A stretch of DNA of 64,000 bases from Minisyncoccota bacterium (GTDB taxonomy: Bacteria; Patescibacteriota; Minisyncoccia; Phycocordibacterales; UBA9973): assembly GCA_041650615.1 (NCBI GenBank), contig JBAZKU010000001.1, positions 249,216-313,215 of the forward strand, read 5' to 3'. The notes under the pieces are model-generated. The model was not told the DNA's origin. It did no database searches and saw only the letters and a program-made list of their open reading frames with translations. This document shows, one piece after another, positions 6,036 through 63,775 of the stretch. The position numbers were made by a program, and so were the translations under genes. Position 1 is the first letter of the stretch, and each line of letters opens with the position of its first letter.

Positions 6036-6043
6036 AAATGAAT

Positions 6044-6152
6044 CCCGTTAGAGGCCGCGGTCGCATACGGGAACAAAGAGATAAAAATATATTATAAGAT
6101 TAATTTATAGACAGGAAAGGTTTTAAGGCGAACGCGACCTGCCTCTAACGGG
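6044..6152 (+). mobile_element. MITE-like inverted-repeat element (TIR CCCGTTAGAG ... CTCTAACGGG) inserted exactly at the def start codon; flanking 6-bp direct repeats ATGAAT / ATGAAA
   Basis: 13-bp near-perfect terminal inverted repeats plus inner stem; the same TIR family occurs at 11839..11956 and 63665..63741. Confidence 0.45.
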
Positions 6153-6686
6153 ATGAAAGAAATAGTTCAAAAAAATGATAAAGTTTTGCGCAGGAATGTA
6201 AAAGAAGTGCCGATAGATGAAATCAAAACTCCTAAAATAAAAAAAATATTAAAAGAGATGTCGGATGCGTTAAAAGACCAAAGCGATGGTGTAGCCATTG
6301 CAGCGCCGCAAATAGGATATTCCTTGGCGATTTTTGTTGTCTCGGGGAAAATTTTTTATAAAGATTTTATTAGAGGAGGAATAGAGTTTGAAAAAATACC
6401 CAAAAGAGAAATTCCCAAGGATTTGATTTTTATTAATCCGAAAATTTCAAAATTGTCCCGTGAAAAAGATTGGCTATTGGAAGGCTGTCTTTCCGTGAGA
6501 TGGTTATACGGAAAAACCCATAGATCAAAAAAGGCAATGATTACGGCTTATGACGAAAATGGCAAAAAATTTCAAAGAGGCGCCTCCGGTCTTTTAGCTC
6601 AAATTTTCCAACATGAAACAGACCATCTAAAAGGTGTGCTTTTTATAGACCACGCCAAGGAAATAAGGGAAGAATTACCTAAATAA
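6153..6686 (+). CDS. def: peptide deformylase
   Basis: GVAIAAPQIGY, EGCLSV, QHETDHLKG metal-binding motifs. Confidence 0.9.
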   Translation: MKEIVQKNDKVLRRNVKEVPIDEIKTPKIKKILKEMSDALKDQSDGVAIAAPQIGYSLAIFVVSGKIFYKDFIRGGIEFEKIPKREIPKDLIFINPKISKLSREKDWLLEGCLSVRWLYGKTHRSKKAMITAYDENGKKFQRGASGLLAQIFQHETDHLKGVLFIDHAKEIREELPK

Positions 6687-6687
6687 A

Positions 6688-7620
6688 ATGAATAATAAAA
6701 TAAATTTTGTATTTTGGGGAACACCGGATGTAGCATCAGAAACTCTGGAAATTCTTAAAGAAAATGGCTTTATGCCATCGCTTATTATTACTTCGCCTGA
6801 TAAACCACAAGGGCGTAAAATGGTTATAACTCCCCCGCCGGTAAAAGTTTGGGCAATTGAAAATAAGATTTCATATTTACAACCGGAGATCCTATCCGGC
6901 AAGGATTCTACTTTTATCGGGTCGCTGTCTGTGCCTACTGGCACAGCGCTGCCTCTCGGCTCGTCAGCCTGCGAGACACCCGCTAAAAGTAAATCCTTGC
7001 CGGATTTGTTTTTGGTTGTCGCCTATGGGAAAATAATTCCGGAAGATATTTTGAATATACCCAAACTAGGTTCTATAAATATTCATTATTCATTACTGCC
7101 AAAGTATCGCGGAGCTTCACCTGTGGAATCGGCTATTTTAAACGGAGATACAGAAACAGGCATTTCTATTCAAAAAATGGAATATAAAATGGACACCGGT
7201 CCGATTATTGCCCAAGAAAAAGTAGAAATAGGGCCGGACGAAAAAGCGCCTGAACTGCGCAAACGCCTAATAAAAATCGGGGGAGAACTTTTAGTAAAAA
7301 CTTTGCCGGATTTTATAGATGGAAAAACTAAATTGATTCCGCAAAGCGAGAACGAAGCCACTTATTGCAAGAAAATAAAAAAGGAAGATGGGCTTGTTGA
7401 CTTGGAGGCCTTGCCTCCAAGTGAGCTATATAACAAATTTCGCGCTTATGCCACTTGGCCCAGAACTTTTTTCTTTAAACCTGCCCGCAATGCTTCGCAT
7501 AGCGATGCAGGCGGGAATGGAAAAAGAATAATAATTACCGATGCTAAATTAGAAAATGGAGAATTTAAAATTCTAAAAATCATTCCTGAAGGAGGAAAAG
7601 AGACAAAATACGAAGGATAA
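6688..7620 (+). CDS. fmt: methionyl-tRNA formyltransferase (carries a 36-aa in-frame insertion)
   Basis: FWGTPDVA..., VVAYGKIIP, NIHYSLLPKYRGASPV, C-terminal Fmt domain. Confidence 0.9.
   Translation: MNNKINFVFWGTPDVASETLEILKENGFMPSLIITSPDKPQGRKMVITPPPVKVWAIENKISYLQPEILSGKDSTFIGSLSVPTGTALPLGSSACETPAKSKSLPDLFLVVAYGKIIPEDILNIPKLGSINIHYSLLPKYRGASPVESAILNGDTETGISIQKMEYKMDTGPIIAQEKVEIGPDEKAPELRKRLIKIGGELLVKTLPDFIDGKTKLIPQSENEATYCKKIKKEDGLVDLEALPPSELYNKFRAYATWPRTFFFKPARNASHSDAGGNGKRIIITDAKLENGEFKILKIIPEGGKETKYEG
6896..7003 (+). repeat. 108-bp GC-rich palindromic element inserted in-frame in fmt (outer stem CCGGCAAGGATT/AATCCTTGCCGG); paralogous copy in tgt
   Basis: Core gggtcgctgtct...agcgctgcctctcg...gcgagacaccc is shared with 56921..57028; both copies are exactly 108 bp and encode FIGSLS...ALPL...CETP. 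Confidence 0.6.
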
Positions 7621-11789: not shown

Positions 11790-11838
11790 TGATTCATTAT
11801 ACCAAAAATAATAAATCTGGTATAATTTATTTATGTAT

Positions 11839-11956
11839 CCCGTTAGAGATTAAATAGTTAAAATAAATTTCTCGGGGAAATGGGTATAAAAAATGTGTCG
11901 AAATTATAATGATTAAATTAAGAACGAAAATCTAAAAATTTTCTATCTCTAACGGG
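11839..11956 (+). mobile_element. MITE-like element (TIR CCCGTTAGAGAT ... ATCTCTAACGGG) inserted at the start codon of the EamA gene; perfect 6-bp target duplication ATGTAT
   Basis: 12-bp perfect TIRs; ATGTAT at 11833..11838 and 11957..11962; an extended -10 (TGGTATAAT) sits immediately upstream of the left duplicate. Confidence 0.45.
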
Positions 11957-12379
11957 ATGTATATAATATATGCATTGTTGGGAGCAATTATGGCAAGCGC
12001 GGGAACGATTTTTGCCAAATTGGGGCTGAAGGGAGTTGATGCGAATTTACTCACCGCCATTCGTGGTATTGTTATGGCTTTGATTGTTTCTATTGCCGCT
12101 TTATCTTTTGGAAAACTTACCATGACATCAATGTCGGCACTTTCCGCCAAGCAATGGATTTTCGTAATTCTTTCCGGACTGGGTGGGGCTTTATCTTGGA
12201 TTTTCTTTTATCAAGCTCTGTCTGTCGGACCGACAGTAGCTGTAACGGTTATTGATAAATTATCTTTGGTATTTACCGCTATTCTTGCTTTCGCAGTTTT
12301 GTCGGAAGGAATTACCCTCCAATCAGGACTAGGACTTGCCCTTGTGGTAGCTGGGACATTGCTTGTCGCTATACGCTAG
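11957..12379 (+). CDS. EamA/DMT-superfamily small membrane transporter
   Basis: 4-TM 140-aa protein, EamA-like sequence (GLGGALSWIFFYQAL). Confidence 0.5.
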   Translation: MYIIYALLGAIMASAGTIFAKLGLKGVDANLLTAIRGIVMALIVSIAALSFGKLTMTSMSALSAKQWIFVILSGLGGALSWIFFYQALSVGPTVAVTVIDKLSLVFTAILAFAVLSEGITLQSGLGLALVVAGTLLVAIR

Positions 12380-24060: not shown

Positions 24061-24152
24061 AAATAAAAAAGTCCTCCGATTTAAGTCGAAGGACTTTTGC
24101 TTTTTTGACATTCCCCCTTTTAAACTGCGGGAACTTTTTCTTTTTCCGATAA
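24061..24152. repeat. 92-bp segment (3' end of response regulator gene plus terminator hairpin) identical to 25616..25707
   Basis: Direct base-by-base comparison; includes hairpin agtcctccga/tcgaaggact. Confidence 0.8.
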
Positions 24153-24521
24153 GACCCGATCAATTGTGGCTAAAAGATCAACAAGATCATACGGTTTGGT
24201 GATCATATCTCTAGCTCCTAATTTTTTTGACTCACAACAGTTTTTCAGGTCGCCAAAACCTGTTAACATAATGACTTTAATTTTAGGATTTATCAATTCT
24301 TCCTTGGAATTCTGAATAAATCTCAAAACTCCAAATCCATCAACCTTAGGCATCTTGATATCTAGTATTACCAAATCGAATGCCTCTCGTTTGAGGAAAT
24401 CAATCGCCTCTTCTCCATCGGCTGCCATTTGAACATAAAACCCCTCCGGAGAAAGTTCCGCTTCCAATATCACTCTTACATCTTCTTCATCATCCACAAC
24501 AAGAATCCTTGCGTTTTTCAT
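24120..24521 (-). CDS. single-domain response regulator (CheY-like receiver)
   Basis: VVDDEED, LVILDIKMP (phospho-acceptor Asp), IMLTG, ITKPYD. Confidence 0.8.
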   Translation of the reverse strand: MKNARILVVDDEEDVRVILEAELSPEGFYVQMAADGEEAIDFLKREAFDLVILDIKMPKVDGFGVLRFIQNSKEELINPKIKVIMLTGFGDLKNCCESKKLGARDMITKPYDLVDLLATIDRVLSEKEKVPAV

Positions 24522-25521: not shown

Positions 25522-25674
25522 TTGTTCATTATAACTTTATATTTGTATTTAACAACAGCTGAGTTTTCCACTGACTCTGAATTCAGGAGAGATTCCGGTT
25601 TATATTCCGGCAGGAAAATAAAAAAGTCCTCCGATTTAAGTCGAAGGACTTTTGCTTTTTTGACATTCCCCCTT

Positions 25675-26079
25675 TTAAACTGCGGGAACTTTTTCTTTTT
25701 CCGATAAAACTCGTTCAATTGTGACCAAAAGGTCAAGGGAGTCATATGGTTTATAGAGAATCTCTGCAACCCCTAAATTTTTCAAGGTTGTTACATCTTT
25801 CTGATTAAGGCAATAATAGCTTGACAGTATGATGGCCTTAATTTTTGAGTTTTGAAATTCTGTTTTGTTATTTTGAATAAACTCCAAAACTTCAAACCCA
25901 TCAACCTTTGGTAAAAAAGCTTCCAATATAATCAGATCAAAGGTCTCTTGTTGAAGAACATTAATCGCTTCTTCCCCGTCAGCTGCCATTTGAACCTTAT
26001 ACCCCTCACGAGAGAGTAAGGCATTTAATACTACCCTTATCCCTCCTTCATCTACAATAAGAACCCTTGTATCTTTCAT
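25675..26079 (-). CDS. single-domain response-regulator paralogue with atypical active site (phospho-acceptor Asp replaced by Glu; DD pair replaced by DE)
   Basis: Aligns along its length with 24120..24521; LIILEAFLPKVDG versus LVILDIKMPKVDG; identical C-terminus EKEKVPAV. Confidence 0.7.
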   Translation of the reverse strand: MKDTRVLIVDEGGIRVVLNALLSREGYKVQMAADGEEAINVLQQETFDLIILEAFLPKVDGFEVLEFIQNNKTEFQNSKIKAIILSSYYCLNQKDVTTLKNLGVAEILYKPYDSLDLLVTIERVLSEKEKVPAV

Positions 26080-50868: not shown

Positions 50869-50945
50869 TGGTGGACCCTACAGGACTCGAACCTGCCACC
50901 TCCTCATTGCAAATGAGGCGCTCTAGCCAGATGAGCTAAGGGCCC
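50869..50945 (-). tRNA. tRNA-Ala (TGC), CCA encoded
   Basis: Manual fold: GGGCCCT acceptor with G3:U70, anticodon loop TTTGCAA, T loop TTCGAGT. Confidence 0.8.
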
Positions 50946-51043
50946 AATATTTATACAGACCTTATTCTATCTTATTTTTCTAATAATGCAAATTTAGCCA
51001 ATAATATTTGTATTTTTTTATGTTTCAGTTATTATTTTTATAA

Positions 51044-51114
51044 GGGCCTGTAGTATAGTAGTAACACGCGTCCATGGCATGGACGAATCGGGGGTGCGAT
51101 TCCCCCCAGGTCCA
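51044..51114 (+). tRNA. tRNA-Ala (GGC), atypical D and T loops
   Basis: GGGCCTG acceptor with G3:U70, anticodon loop ATGGCAT; D loop AGTAGTA lacks the G18G19 pair, T loop TGCGATT has G at position 55, and the D stem has one mismatch. Confidence 0.55.
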
Positions 51115-51198
51115 CATTAAAGGGCCTATATCAAAATCCGATATAGACCCTGCGTTCGGACGAAATGAAATTTTCATATTTCATTTCGCTCCTCACTT

Positions 51199-51269
51199 GG
51201 GCCTATAGTAAAGTGGTATTACGCGGCATTCGCATTGCCGAGGCGCGAGTTCGATTCTCGCTAGGTCCA
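51199..51269 (+). tRNA. tRNA-Ala (CGC)
   Basis: GGGCCTA acceptor with G3:U70, D arm GTAA-AGTGGTA-TTAC, anticodon loop TTCGCAT, T loop TTCGATT. Confidence 0.75.
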
Positions 51270-51312
51270 CATTAGACGATTTCTAACTTTATCTAAAATT
51301 GACCACCAAAAC

Positions 51313-51338
51313 AAAAACCCGCCTTACGGCGGGTTTTT
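51313..51338. terminator. Rho-independent terminator aaaaacccgcc-ttac-ggcgggttttt after the tRNA-Ala pair
   Basis: Perfect 7-bp GC stem flanked by an A-run and a T-run. Confidence 0.65.
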
Positions 51339-51538
51339 GGGCACTTATGTTGTTTACGATAAATGTGAATCTTACCTCACACTCACAAAACGAGTATAGC
51401 ATACCTCAAATAAAAAAGCAAGCCCCCACGCCCTTTTTTATGACGTGCCTTTGGCACATTGTATTCAATATCATAAAAATAGGTGTGGGGGCTTGCTTGT
51501 TATATTTACTTTTCTGGCCATTTGTTCTATACTCCAGG

Positions 51539-51844
51539 TTGGTCCTGTATTGGATAGTTGCGTCTCGCCTTGGCGGGATGAGGAAAGTCCGAACACATAG
51601 TTTCGACTCAGGTCGAGACAAACGTAGCGGGTAACACCCGTCAGGAGCAATCCTAGGGTTGAGAACAGTGACGAACCGATTAAGTTCGGGTGAAACGGCA
51701 AAATACCTACGCGTGTGCAAGATCGTGCTCCGACCTCGGTTGGAGAGAATCGCTTGAGCCTGAAAGTGATTGAAGGCCTAGATAAATAACTATCAATCTG
51801 ACTTCGGTCAGATTACAGAATTCGGCTTATAGATACAAGACCAA
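51539..51844 (+). ncRNA. rnpB: RNase P RNA (bacterial type, reduced)
   Basis: P1 pairing TTGGTCCTGTAT / ATACAAGACCAA; conserved regions GAGGAAAGTCCGAACAC, GGGTGAAACGG, ACAGAATTCGGCTTATAG. Confidence 0.7.
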
Positions 51845-51852
51845 GAATATGA

Positions 51853-51886
51853 AAAATCCTCTCGCAAGAGAGGATTTTTCTTTTTT
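51853..51886. terminator. bidirectional terminator aaaaatcctctc-gcaa-gagaggattttt + T-run between rnpB and the convergent reductase gene
   Basis: 10-bp perfect stem; T6 downstream and A5 upstream. Confidence 0.7.
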
Positions 51887-63283: not shown

Positions 63284-63664
63284 TTACTTTTTTATTTTTA
63301 TAACTTCTTCCAATTTTTGCACTATTTCTTTCGGAGTATTTTCCATTTTTACCAGATAAAGGCTTACCCCGAGTTCGGAAAACTCTTTTTCATGTTCTTT
63401 CTCAAAAGAATTGGTAAGCACCACCACCGGCACCTCTTTTAATTCTTTGTAAGTGCGAATTTTCCTAAGTAAATCCAAACCGTTCATTTTAGGCATCATT
63501 ATATCTAGGGCTATTAGATCAGGCGGTGGATTCATTACCTCTAAAAGTTTTATTGCCTCTTCCCCATCATGAGCTACTAGAACTTCGTGATTTTCAAGAC
63601 GAAAGATACGCTCATACATTCGAGTAATAAAAACATCATCATCAATAATAAAAATTTTACTCAT
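63284..63664 (-). CDS. single-domain response regulator (CheY-like)
   Basis: IIDDDVF, IALDIMMP, VVLTN, YLVKM. Confidence 0.8.
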   Translation of the reverse strand: MSKIFIIDDDVFITRMYERIFRLENHEVLVAHDGEEAIKLLEVMNPPPDLIALDIMMPKMNGLDLLRKIRTYKELKEVPVVVLTNSFEKEHEKEFSELGVSLYLVKMENTPKEIVQKLEEVIKIKK

Positions 63665-63741
63665 CCCGTTAGAAATTTATACTAATTAATAATACTGGAC
63701 CTTTATATCCCGTTTTCAATATTTTCATTATTTCTAACGGG
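63665..63741 (-). mobile_element. MITE-like element (TIR CCCGTTAGAAAT ... ATTTCTAACGGG) abutting the response-regulator start codon; 6-bp direct repeats ATGAGT (minus strand)
   Basis: actcat at 63659..63664 and 63742..63747; same TIR family as 6044 and 11839. Confidence 0.4.
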
Positions 63742-63775
63742 ACTCATAATTTTATTTGGTTATCTTATAATTTTA

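Follow-up and report, generated by a model that had tools for sequence, protein, structure and literature searches.

What are the short inverted-repeat segments that lie directly at the beginning of several genes in this stretch of DNA? The window analysed here, the whole stretch of 64,000 nucleotides from a candidate-phyla-radiation bacterium, contains three short hairpin-forming insertions, each placed exactly on the start codon of one gene (Table 1). A preliminary description had reported a shared architecture at the starts of def, an EamA gene and a response-regulator gene, and we could reproduce its sequences and coordinates. The exact 9-mer CCCGTTAGA occurs six times in the 64 kb, solely as three convergent pairs, and each pair is flanked by ATGNNT and ATGNNN. 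The paired pattern gave 0 matches in 100 shuffles of the window, and no convincing further copy was found in the window with up to three mismatches allowed. Copy 1 can form a 13-bp closing stem, whose gene-proximal arm has a 4-nt bulge (ACCT), and additionally a second stem, GGTCGC/GCGACC. Copy 2 belongs to a subfamily with a local 3' hairpin (GAAAAT/ATTTTC, 11926-11943), which is followed by TATC-TCTAACGGG.

Table 1. Coordinates of the three copies and their parts in the 64-kb window.
Feature	Position	Strand	Remarks
Copy 1, core	6044-6152	+	ATGAAT-CCCGTTAGAGGC...GCCTCTAACGGG-ATGAAA; adjoins def (6153-6686)
Copy 1 with terminal T..A pair	6043..6153	+	'CGCG' subfamily
Copy 1, upstream TGAA of proposed 4-bp target duplication	6039..6042	+	A at 6038 is the original start-codon A
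Copy 1, downstream TGAA	6154..6157	+	terminal A (6153) plus TG forms the def start codon 6153-6155
Copy 1, internal box ACGGGA	6067..6072	+	can pair with 5' arm UCCCGU (6043-6048)
Copy 1, short upstream ORF MNPVRGRGRIREQRDKNIL (ends at stop)	6038..6097	+	opened by the retained original ATG
Copy 2, core	11839-11956	+	ATGTAT-CCCGTTAGAGAT...ATCTCTAACGGG-ATGTAT; adjoins EamA gene (11957-12379)
Copy 2 with terminal T..A pair	11838..11957	+	
Copy 2, duplication TGTA	upstream 11834..11837, downstream 11958-11961	+	
Native extended -10 box TGGTATAAT of the EamA gene	11818..11826	+	6 nt upstream of the original ATG (11833)
Copy 3, core	63665-63741	-	ATGAGT-CCCGTTAGAAAT...ATTTCTAACGGG-ATGAGT; adjoins response-regulator gene (63284-63664)
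Copy 3 with terminal pair	63664..63742	-	short 77-nt subfamily
Copy 3, TGAG duplication	63746-63743 and 63663-63660	-	
Copy 3, internal box AACGGGAU	63707..63714	-	pairs with 5' arm GUCCCGUU

Related genomes were compared at the sites of the three copies. It had been suggested to look for a hisS-def junction that lacks the insert, and copy 1 is indeed absent from this junction in five relatives (L126, L128, L129, L133 and L136); in L136 the empty site reads ...AAGTAATGAAAGAAATAG. The copy 2 site is empty in L154, where it reads tggtataatttatttATGTATATAATT, and likewise in L155 and L156. In L154 the -10 box TGGTATAAT and its spacing to the EamA start are the same as in the window, where copy 2 separates this box from the EamA ORF, as had been described. 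The empty sites carry one single copy of the duplicated sequence. Copies 1 and 2 are therefore insertions, and the earlier view of mobile, MITE-like insertions defined by their termini was borne out by these empty sites and by the presence of several copies per genome. The orthologous site of copy 3 is occupied in L159 with 4 substitutions in 77 positions (95% conserved) next to a response regulator that is 86% identical; the spacer upstream is not alignable with L159, unlike copy 3 itself. A gene spacing of 51 nt in one candidate contig suggests that the copy 3 site is empty there. Differences in presence are also seen in other lineages. At the dnaA start codon of related Saccharibacteria, different subfamilies are found in L016 and L046 and the site is empty in L028 and L065, and syntenic Saccharibacteria loci differ in copy positions. 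The Jorgensenbacteria locus L037 harbors three near-identical 78-nt copies, and nested and tandem copies both occur. Three copies are present in 64 kb here, and among the loci listed elsewhere there are up to three per 8-kb locus.

The copies listed, from more than 119 loci, are 62-133 bp long. The 9-nt core CCCGTTAGA was set by the search pattern and is hence invariant in the collected copies. The inverted repeat extends beyond this core to 13 bp, Y-CCCGTTAGA-NNN; its first base and its three last ones differ among copies, yet those of one arm remain complementary to those of the other. Repeat positions -1, 9, 10 and 11 are Watson-Crick pairs in 129, 129, 131 and 119 of 137 copies listed; in shuffles the same positions gave 51-67, and the observed values were reached in 0 of 5000. 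The inverted repeats noted previously include a further base outside CCC/GGG, and their length is not 12 but 13 bp.

The flanking direct repeat had been read as the start codon plus the second codon, 6 bp in total. Among 136 copies listed, the inner four positions of this 6-nt register match in 71-81%, the outer two match in 54% and 46%, and other duplication registers match in 3-41%. After these register statistics the 6-bp duplication was dropped for a 4-bp core, and statistically the conserved repeat appears to be the inner 4 nt. The duplication looks like 6 nt because the element's own terminal T..A or C..G pair adds to it. The cores seen are TGAA, TGGA, TAAA and similar, of the type TNNA or YNNR. 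Recurrent ATGAAC-...-GTGAAx cases can be explained solely by a 4-bp duplication together with a terminal C..G pair, and with the empty site of L136 this model explains copy 1 without any mutation. Four copies fit a 5-nt register instead (L005, L007, L044 and L089), and the tandem copies in L037 are without matching duplications.

It follows directly from the sequences that the terminal purine together with the duplicated TG rebuilds an ATG or GTG. A T..A-ended copy that enters the TGNA of an A-TGNA gene start leaves the original ATG upstream, the element's terminal A and the duplicated TG form a new ATG directly before the intact ORF, and C..G-ended copies give a GTG start. As the start codon is rebuilt from the element end and the duplicated target, even essential genes could survive the insertion. 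Every copy that retains the upstream ATG opens a reading frame M-x-P-V-R, because the 5' arm is read in frame from this ATG. These upstream ORFs are short and end at variable places, and in several copies (L079, L082 and L117) ATT or ATA now stands where the upstream ATG was. The interiors of the copies had been regarded as unrelated. This did not hold, as an oriented YGGGR box is shared and subfamilies recur in other genomes; the loops are highly variable across copies and have no conserved ligand-like core.

More than 119 loci carry the element among the matches listed from one scan, all of them in metagenome-assembled genomes. According to these matches, Omnitrophota, Desulfobacterota and Planctomycetota are hosts besides most classes of Patescibacteria, together with a few further phyla. 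Viral contigs also carry a small number of bona fide copies, and BLAST searches of plasmid and phage collections with copy 1 gave AT-rich chance matches only. An ATG or GTG that opens an ORF of at least 60 aa is adjoined by 67 of the 138 copies listed. Among the copies listed, this concerns 54 of 90 in Patescibacteria (60%) versus 5 of 34 in other phyla (15%). Start-codon targeting, as proposed in the preliminary description, is therefore an association far beyond chance and not an obligatory placement; the evidence that had been named there as speaking against it, copies away from start codons, is found in part, outside Patescibacteria. The remaining copies lie between the Shine-Dalgarno sequence and the ATG, farther up the 5' leader, or in frame inside ORFs. 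In L006 and L068 GGAGG or GGGG precedes the element, and an ATG follows 6 nt behind it. Patescibacteria copies have no Shine-Dalgarno sequence. In the window, a TAnnnT ends 5-9 nt before the start codon in 26 of 66 genes. Copies inside ORFs are a minority near the 5' ends of genes; they are in frame and stop-free, and their lengths are multiples of 3 (L042 (xth), L110, L038, L051 and L037 prepilin leader peptides). In L014 murC and L018 the downstream start is lost and an in-frame ATG inside the loop takes over; thus the loop and the 3' arm are translated.

The genes at start-adjoining copies belong to 94 Pfam families, including topoisomerase I, ATP synthase, Mur ligases, DnaA and PGK, among which no functional theme was found; in Patescibacteria they are often housekeeping genes. 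The window contains 672 ATGNA sites, namely 36 at gene starts, 49 intergenic and 587 intragenic, and after removal of the intragenic sites 42% are at gene starts. Probably, a target preference (including ATGRA) and the loss of copies that land inside genes jointly cause the start-codon bias in the gene-dense, mostly leaderless genomes of Patescibacteria. Arm-like sequences were not found in the target flanks.

In the proposed mechanism the element is transcribed as part of the mRNA, in which the two arms could close a stem of at least 13 bp that buries the first bases of the start codon. For full-length RNA the closing stem is the most stable predicted fold. Alternatively, the YGGGR box may pair with the 5' arm and leave the 3' arm and the AUG single-stranded. 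Pairing between box and 5' arm is possible on the sense strand of 31 of 66 copies versus 3 of 66 on the antisense strand (p = 1.5e-8), with G·U pairs in 11/31 and 9/31 at two positions, and the terminal Y covaries with the base that follows the box. About half of the start-adjoining copies are without a YGGGR box. Folding of truncated transcripts predicts the hairpin of box and 5' arm for copy 1 and for copy 3 (z = -2.6); in L159 the copy 3 box is AACGGGGU, by which a U-A pair becomes U·G. The orientation of the element relative to the gene is fixed, and strand-specific wobble in the closing stem showed no bias. Box pairing would, as judged from these predicted folds, free the start codon, and therefore the insertion may be tolerated or act as a switch. 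An outward promoter carried by the element, which had also been considered, received no specific support: neither strand of the copies is richer in -10-like hexamers (85 sense, 80 antisense), and a simple promoter scan inside the three copies detected none on the gene's strand.

Taken as a whole, the data are probably best explained by a family of non-autonomous, hairpin-forming miniature transposable elements of 62-133 bp. As expected for MITEs, the copies are short and non-coding, with only short variable ORFs from the retained upstream ATG, they share terminal inverted repeats (13-bp Y-CCCGTTAGA-NNN), they are flanked by a target-site duplication (the inner 4 nt, present as a single copy at empty sites), and they are dispersed and differ in presence and absence. 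The exact 9-nt core common to distant phyla is unusual for a MITE and counts against this assignment. No autonomous copy was detected in about 130 loci of up to 13 kb, and an all-against-all clustering of 1121 neighbouring ORFs from about 130 loci revealed no recurrent transposase or recombinase. Therefore, the transposition chemistry remains putative. Unpaired 9-mers in the loci are short copies with a mismatched partner and not the ends of long elements. For the three window loci, Rfam 15 gave no family at the gathering threshold, and relaxing the cutoff to E up to 1 added just weak matches to generic hairpins (plant miRNA).

Several known systems resemble the element in part. In Correia elements the repeats measure 26 bp, the duplication is TA, the promoters are defined and the known distribution is restricted to one genus, whereas here the repeat is 13 bp, the duplication 4 bp, the start codon is hit to the base and rebuilt, the same core is found across phyla and an internal decoy box is present. 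Like the Correia elements of Neisseria (CREE) and ERIC/IRU, the present element is short and non-coding, with terminal inverted repeats and a target duplication, and has many copies that lie mostly just upstream of genes (PMC10969869). Those elements are also co-transcribed and form an mRNA-leader hairpin that affects expression, a co-transcription that is proposed here as well (PMC10969869). A 2024 review of prokaryotic MITEs nowhere mentions start codons (PMC10969869). In the literature on MITEs, palindromic elements, start codons, leaderless genes and Patescibacteria we found no such element described, and the family is apparently undescribed. Rickettsia palindromic elements (RPE) are likewise palindromic, mobile and tolerated in genes as in-frame, stop-free insertions; they are about 100-150 bp long, Rickettsia-specific and not known for any start-codon association. 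The ends of the piggyBac / IS1380 superfamily begin CCC/CC..TAGA (piggyBac CCCTAGAAAGATA, ISEcp1 CCTAGATTC), the duplication is of the T..A type with 4-5 bp (TTAA in piggyBac), and precise excision is possible. The likeness in repeat ends and T..A-type duplication may serve as a lead. In contrast to this superfamily, one covarying base (Y/R) is located here between the 4-bp duplication and CCC, the target is not the TTAA of piggyBac, and no such transposase is encoded near any copy in the approximately 130 loci. The covariation from arm to arm points to a hairpin requirement, and we know of no such requirement in the piggyBac / IS1380 superfamily.

One alternative is a cis-acting 5'-leader RNA switch, responding to temperature, translation or a protein, that merely spreads by transposition. 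In such a switch the 5' arm would alternate between the internal box, with the start free, and the 3' arm, with the start buried or, in copies outside Patescibacteria, the Shine-Dalgarno sequence. The two mutually exclusive pairings, the G·U pairs on the sense strand and the fixed orientation relative to the gene agree with this, as does copy 3 with its 95% conservation in L159 beside an unalignable spacer. Some copies from other phyla and viruses carry CCTCC in the 5' arm and, at a distance of 9-11 nt from the following ATG, GGAGG in the 3' arm. However, half of the copies have no box, the variable loops offer no conserved ligand-like core, Rfam gave no match and the downstream genes, with their 94 Pfam families, share no functional theme. 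The empty sites of close relatives mean that the genes function in the absence of the element, and we regard a primary role as a switch as rather unlikely. At positions -1 and 9-11 selection acts on arm pairing and not on one particular sequence, which suggests a hairpin substrate and could also indicate that a folded single strand is moved by a tyrosine recombinase or HUH enzyme, as in integron attC sites, XerCD-dependent elements, REPINs or the IS200/IS605 family. The flanking repeat would then be a crossover or guide region and not a duplication made by a transposase. REPINs are likewise hairpin doublets of inverted short repeats of about 100 nt with conserved ends and a variable middle, and they are moved in trans by a single-copy enzyme, the RAYT. 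The polarity of the element and the tandem junction TCTAACGGG-N6-CCCGTTAGA, which resembles a core site of two arms separated by 6 bp (L037 and L049), would suit such a mechanism. Yet REPINs are extragenic, with a GTAG-type foot, no known target duplication and a lineage-specific distribution, none of which applies here. No GTAG-type REP signature and no recurrent integrase or RAYT gene was found nearby, the flanking 4-mer varies within one genome without covariation with an internal candidate guide, and the target flanks contain no arm-like sequence. An integron attC or gene cassette was rejected, because the arm order GTTAGAR...YTCTAAC (GTT...AAC) is the reverse of R'' (RYYYAAC)...R' (GTTRRRY) and the elements sit 5' of housekeeping genes without a recurrent integrase. 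Single-strand transfer thus appears quite unlikely.

Skipping of the hairpin at the RNA level was considered as well, either by splicing or by a hop in which the ribosome with fMet-tRNA jumps from the upstream AUG to the matching downstream AUG/GUG. In phage T4, genes 38 and 25 have split ribosome-binding sites in which a closed hairpin is looped out before the AUG, similar to the hairpin between Shine-Dalgarno sequence and AUG in L006 and L068. The compact hairpin is flanked by matching AUG...AUG/GUG codons, like the take-off and landing sites of the T4 gene 60 bypass, the upstream AUG would be the 5' end of leaderless transcripts, and a 5' exon would end in U and the element in G. The T4 cases are single fixed loci and not mobile families, and nothing here requires bypassing. 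Nearly all copies have kept an intact downstream start codon (67 listed with ATG/GTG), so skipping is not needed; where it is lost, in murC of L014 and in L018, the loop is translated. A group I or II intron would have to be longer than this element, which has no ribozyme or intron match either, copies inside ORFs are stop-free, in frame and multiples of 3, and the upstream ATG has decayed in the three loci named above, which makes skipping very improbable. The inverted repeat might also be a regulator operator or the boundary of an invertible promoter (phase variation), as its palindromic pair lies directly before genes and encloses AT-rich sequence with TATAAT-like hexamers. This reading is largely refuted and we consider it extremely improbable: sites are empty in close relatives, the same core precedes unrelated genes in distant phyla, copies also occur inside ORFs and no recombinase gene recurs nearby. 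Moreover, six conspecific contigs, which come from several samples, are identical and show a single orientation, and the half-sites, 60-110 bp apart, are too distant for one operator and enclose a segment too short for inversion.

Returning to the miniature transposable elements, it is tempting to speculate about a mobile 'start-site cassette' for leaderless genes, which would recognise the first codons, rebuild the AUG and carry an RNA decoy that neutralises the hairpin or makes a portable translational switch. In the extreme version, the ribosome would move from the 5'-terminal AUG to the rebuilt AUG. We give this reading, with these additions, a small chance; if true, mobile DNA would have a hitherto unrecognised means of rewiring translation initiation, by a module spread over Patescibacteria and other phyla. 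If the transposable element family is confirmed, a mobile element can occupy the start codons of essential genes (dnaA, topA, murC and def), among the most sensitive positions of a gene, without killing the gene, since its own end restores the codon. The small genomes of Patescibacteria (CPR) are thought to be poor in mobile DNA, and this would be among the first repeat families described for them. It would also offer a natural test bed for start-codon finding in largely leaderless, Shine-Dalgarno-poor bacteria, and the 13-bp ends give a starting point in the search for the enzyme responsible for its movement. Annotation is affected too, as gene callers may misplace starts or call spurious MxPVR peptides at element sites.

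The three elements of the window were found, on re-reading of the sequence, exactly where the preliminary description had placed them. In the 64 kb there are six occurrences of the 9-mer CCCGTTAGA, all of them in the three convergent pairs; the paired pattern did not occur in 100 shuffles. When mismatches were allowed, the search of the window yielded no additional convincing copy. Each element is predicted to fold as RNA into a long closed hairpin (z = -2.9 to -6.3) with a base extending to the flanking ATGs, and Rfam holds no family at the three loci.

Positions of the hairpin elements in the window and in comparison loci (L-numbers), and of other features of the window
Feature	Locus	Position	Strand	Context
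Copy 1	window	6044-6152		precedes def
Copy 2	window	11839-11956		precedes EamA-family gene, 140 aa
Copy 3	window	63665-63741	minus	precedes response-regulator gene
75-nt copy	L016	4321-4395		dnaA start codon
Roughly 130-nt copy	L046	about 6210-6345		dnaA start codon
Two copies in tandem	L037	2943-3104		prepilin-like gene
Single copy	L037	6122-6199		prepilin-like gene
Copy with GTA at start position	L014	2106-2220		murC
Copy with GTA at start position	L018	7008-7085		family 2 glycosyltransferase gene
92-nt element	L029	2167-2258		inverted relative to the next
92-nt element	L029	4942-5033		inverted relative to the previous
fmt hairpin	window	6894-7005		inside fmt ORF (6688-7620)
Palindrome	window	24067-24098
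Small gene	window	24120-24521
Palindrome	window	25615-25660
Small gene	window	25675-26079
tRNA-Ala cluster, then RNase P RNA	window	50869-51885
31-nt inverted repeat	window	51413-51501		between tRNA-Ala cluster and RNase P RNA

Empty orthologous sites in relatives identify copies 1 and 2 as insertions, as had been proposed. The element is absent between hisS and def in relatives whose HisS shows 87-92% identity; the two genes overlap there or are separated by 17-27 nt. The empty site reads ...AAGTAATGAAAGAAATAG in L136, and the occupied site of the window reads ...ATGAAT[element]ATGAAAGAAATAG. For copy 2, a relative with a 91% identical EamA protein has tggtataatttatttATGTATATAATT, where promoter and gene start match those of the window and the element is absent, and the site is empty in two more relatives. 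Copy 3 is present at the orthologous site of a relative (L159) with an 86% identical response regulator; 4 of 77 positions are substituted, and the upstream spacer cannot be aligned between the two genomes. Judged from this comparison, copy 3 is an older insertion. In conspecific contigs from several samples, the copies are identical and have the same orientation.

An unbiased scan of species-representative genomes for the two 9-mers spaced 51-111 nt apart detected at least 119 loci; the phenomenon is real and wider than the window alone could show. Among the matches listed, the loci derive from metagenome-assembled genomes throughout and belong to most Patescibacteria classes and to Omnitrophota, Desulfobacterota, Planctomycetota (including Brocadia), Edwardsbacteria and Stahlbacteria. 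Viral contigs gave 14 matches, a few of which are clear family members. Several observations are signs of mobility: copies can be nested or lie in tandem at a distance of 6 bp, the Jorgensenbacteria locus L037 has three near-identical 78-nt copies, and insertion sites differ between syntenic Saccharibacteria loci. Furthermore, the dnaA start codon carries copies of different subfamilies in two related Saccharibacteria (L016 and L046) and is empty in two other relatives (L028 and L065). One of these two copies has a 1-nt insertion in its right repeat (TCTAAACGGG), and at both occupied sites 7-8 nt separate TATAAT from the original ATG downstream.

Among the matches listed, 129 of 137 copies have complementary bases outside CCC/GGG (T..A 65, C..G 63), and 119-131 of 137 have them at repeat positions 9-11, with four pair types. 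The shuffle control gave 51-67, and the observed values were reached in 0 of 5000 shuffles. Since variable positions stay complementary far above shuffles, the inverted repeat comprises 13 bp, and it is the pairing as such that is maintained. The flanks were initially described as a 6-bp duplication of ATG plus codon 2. The direct repeat stands, but not its 6-bp extent: in the 6-nt register the inner four positions match in 71-81% of the copies listed, the outer two in 54% and 46%. Recurring flanks with ATGAAC on one side and GTGAAx on the other leave arm complementarity intact and disrupt both outer positions of the 6-nt repeat, and copy 1 is mutation-free if T-CCCG...CGGG-A was inserted with a TGAA duplication. 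Therefore, the element is read as a terminal Y..R pair flanked by a 4-bp target duplication, with an approximate stagger; a 5-nt register fits a few copies instead. The commonest duplications among the matches listed are TGAA/TTCA (34), TAAA/TTTA (16), TGGA/TCCA (11) and TGAG/CTCA (7). Thus, the terminal purine and the duplicated TG rebuild ATG or GTG.

Among the matches listed, 67 of 138 copies adjoin the ATG or GTG of an ORF of at least 60 aa. Contrary to the initial suggestion, start-codon targeting is not obligatory: 54 of 90 Patescibacteria copies and 5 of 34 in other phyla abut starts, and other copies lie in leaders or ORFs. The downstream proteins of the matches listed represent 94 Pfam families, many essential (topoisomerase I, ATP synthase, Mur ligases, DnaA, PGK, deformylase). 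Some copies lie a few nt upstream of the start codon, in L006 and L068 between the Shine-Dalgarno sequence and ATG. Others lie within ORFs, where they keep the frame and contain no stop codon (L042 (xth), L110, L038, L051). In L037, two type IV prepilin-like genes have the copies in frame within their leader peptides, directly before the G|FTLIE cleavage motif and with the GFT codons duplicated, so that the inserted peptide would be cut off together with the leader. In L014 and L018, the rebuilt start codon has decayed to GTA, a non-start codon, and an in-frame ATG in the element loop, 54 and 33 nt upstream, respectively, lengthens the ORF. Here the start site has apparently shifted into the element, and use of the loop ATG would imply both transcription and translation of loop and 3' arm.

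The window derives from a Nomurabacteria-like genome of Candidatus Paceibacterota, of which 91% is coding. A Shine-Dalgarno-like motif precedes only 13 of 66 gene starts in the window, and in 26 of 66 genes TAnnnT ends 5-9 nt before the start codon (e.g., tggtataatgaatcaATG), a leaderless arrangement. Many occupied sites in other genomes have the same kind of -10 spacing. Thus, this organism appears to initiate translation mostly in a leaderless or Shine-Dalgarno-independent manner. The window contains 672 ATGNA sites (36 gene starts, 49 intergenic, 587 intragenic). With an ATGNA preference and loss of intragenic hits, about 42% of the survivors are expected on start codons; a bare TNNA preference predicts only about 2.5%. 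We infer that the start bias reflects a target preference acting jointly with selection, in shares that are not distinguishable. The preference would include ATGRA for T..A copies and, likewise jointly with selection, GT(A/T)(A/T)AC for C..G-ended copies.

The interiors, at first regarded as unrelated, share subfamily stems or hairpins; an internal YGGGR box, 15-45 nt away from the gene-distal end, recurs across the subfamilies. In the copy 1 subfamily, the gene-proximal arm has a 4-nt (A/T)CCT bulge and there is a second stem, CGCGGTC/GACCGCG; the copy 2 subfamily has a local hairpin directly before the 3' arm. Among the matches listed, 31 of 66 start-abutting copies have a partner for the 5' arm YCCCGUU on the sense strand, and 3 of 66 have one on the antisense strand (p = 1.5e-8). 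In these matches arm position 4 forms G-C in 20 and G·U in 11 copies, and position 5 U-A in 15 and U·G in 9. The base following the box covaries with the terminal Y, and in the L159 orthologue of copy 3 the sole box change turns U-A into U·G. The restriction of G·U pairs to one strand points to selection at the RNA level. Predicted folds of transcripts ending before the 3' arm contain the box/5'-arm pairing in copies 1 and 3. Potentially, the box and the 3' arm compete for pairing with the 5' arm, and the AUG region thereby stays open, which would make the insertion tolerable in a genome relying on unstructured or 5'-terminal start codons. This competition could also serve as a switch. An outward promoter, the other role considered initially, received no specific support from a promoter scan of the copies and a comparison of -10-like hexamers. 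Some non-Patescibacteria and viral copies carry GGAGG in the 3' arm, 9-11 nt before ATG.

Neither a long copy nor a recurring neighbouring transposase or recombinase was present among the loci examined. Plasmid and phage collections contained no annotated relative, and no published description was found in the literature. Similarity of the ends to those of piggyBac and IS1380, CCC..TAGA with a 4-bp T..A duplication, is a possible lead. A hairpin element of the MITE-like type is the best classification; for this known kind it is unusual in its rebuilt start codon, its core common to several phyla and its proposed RNA-level decoy.

In L029, the two inverted 92-nt elements enclose 2.7 kb with one gene for a 686-aa secreted-looking protein. 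This layout resembles a composite transposon; L019 and L066 belong here too. Related phage contigs (L139, L140, L141, L143 and L145) have in common a hairpin of 91 nt that ends in the same 9-mers and has A..T flanks, with no target duplication and no adjoining start codon. This hairpin may be unrelated or may be a diverged relative. In the window, the GC-rich fmt hairpin has a perfect 14-nt inverted repeat (ATCCGGCAAGGATT / AATCCTTGCCGGAT, arms 84 nt apart), lies in frame within the Fmt linker and encodes SGKDSTFIGSLSVPTGTALPLGSSACETPAKSKSLPD; Fmt of L126 has an unrelated peptide at this position. It has the appearance of a palindromic insertion, in frame and from a different family. The palindrome AAAAGTCCTCCGATTT/AAGTCGAAGGACTTTT, possibly a terminator, occurs twice near two similar small genes. 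As both have the upstream motif aaaaggaag, they are probably paralogues sharing the palindrome. The three tRNA-Ala genes (anticodons TGC, GGC, CGC) are followed by an RNase P RNA of only 304 nt, compared with 367 positions in the bacterial type A model.
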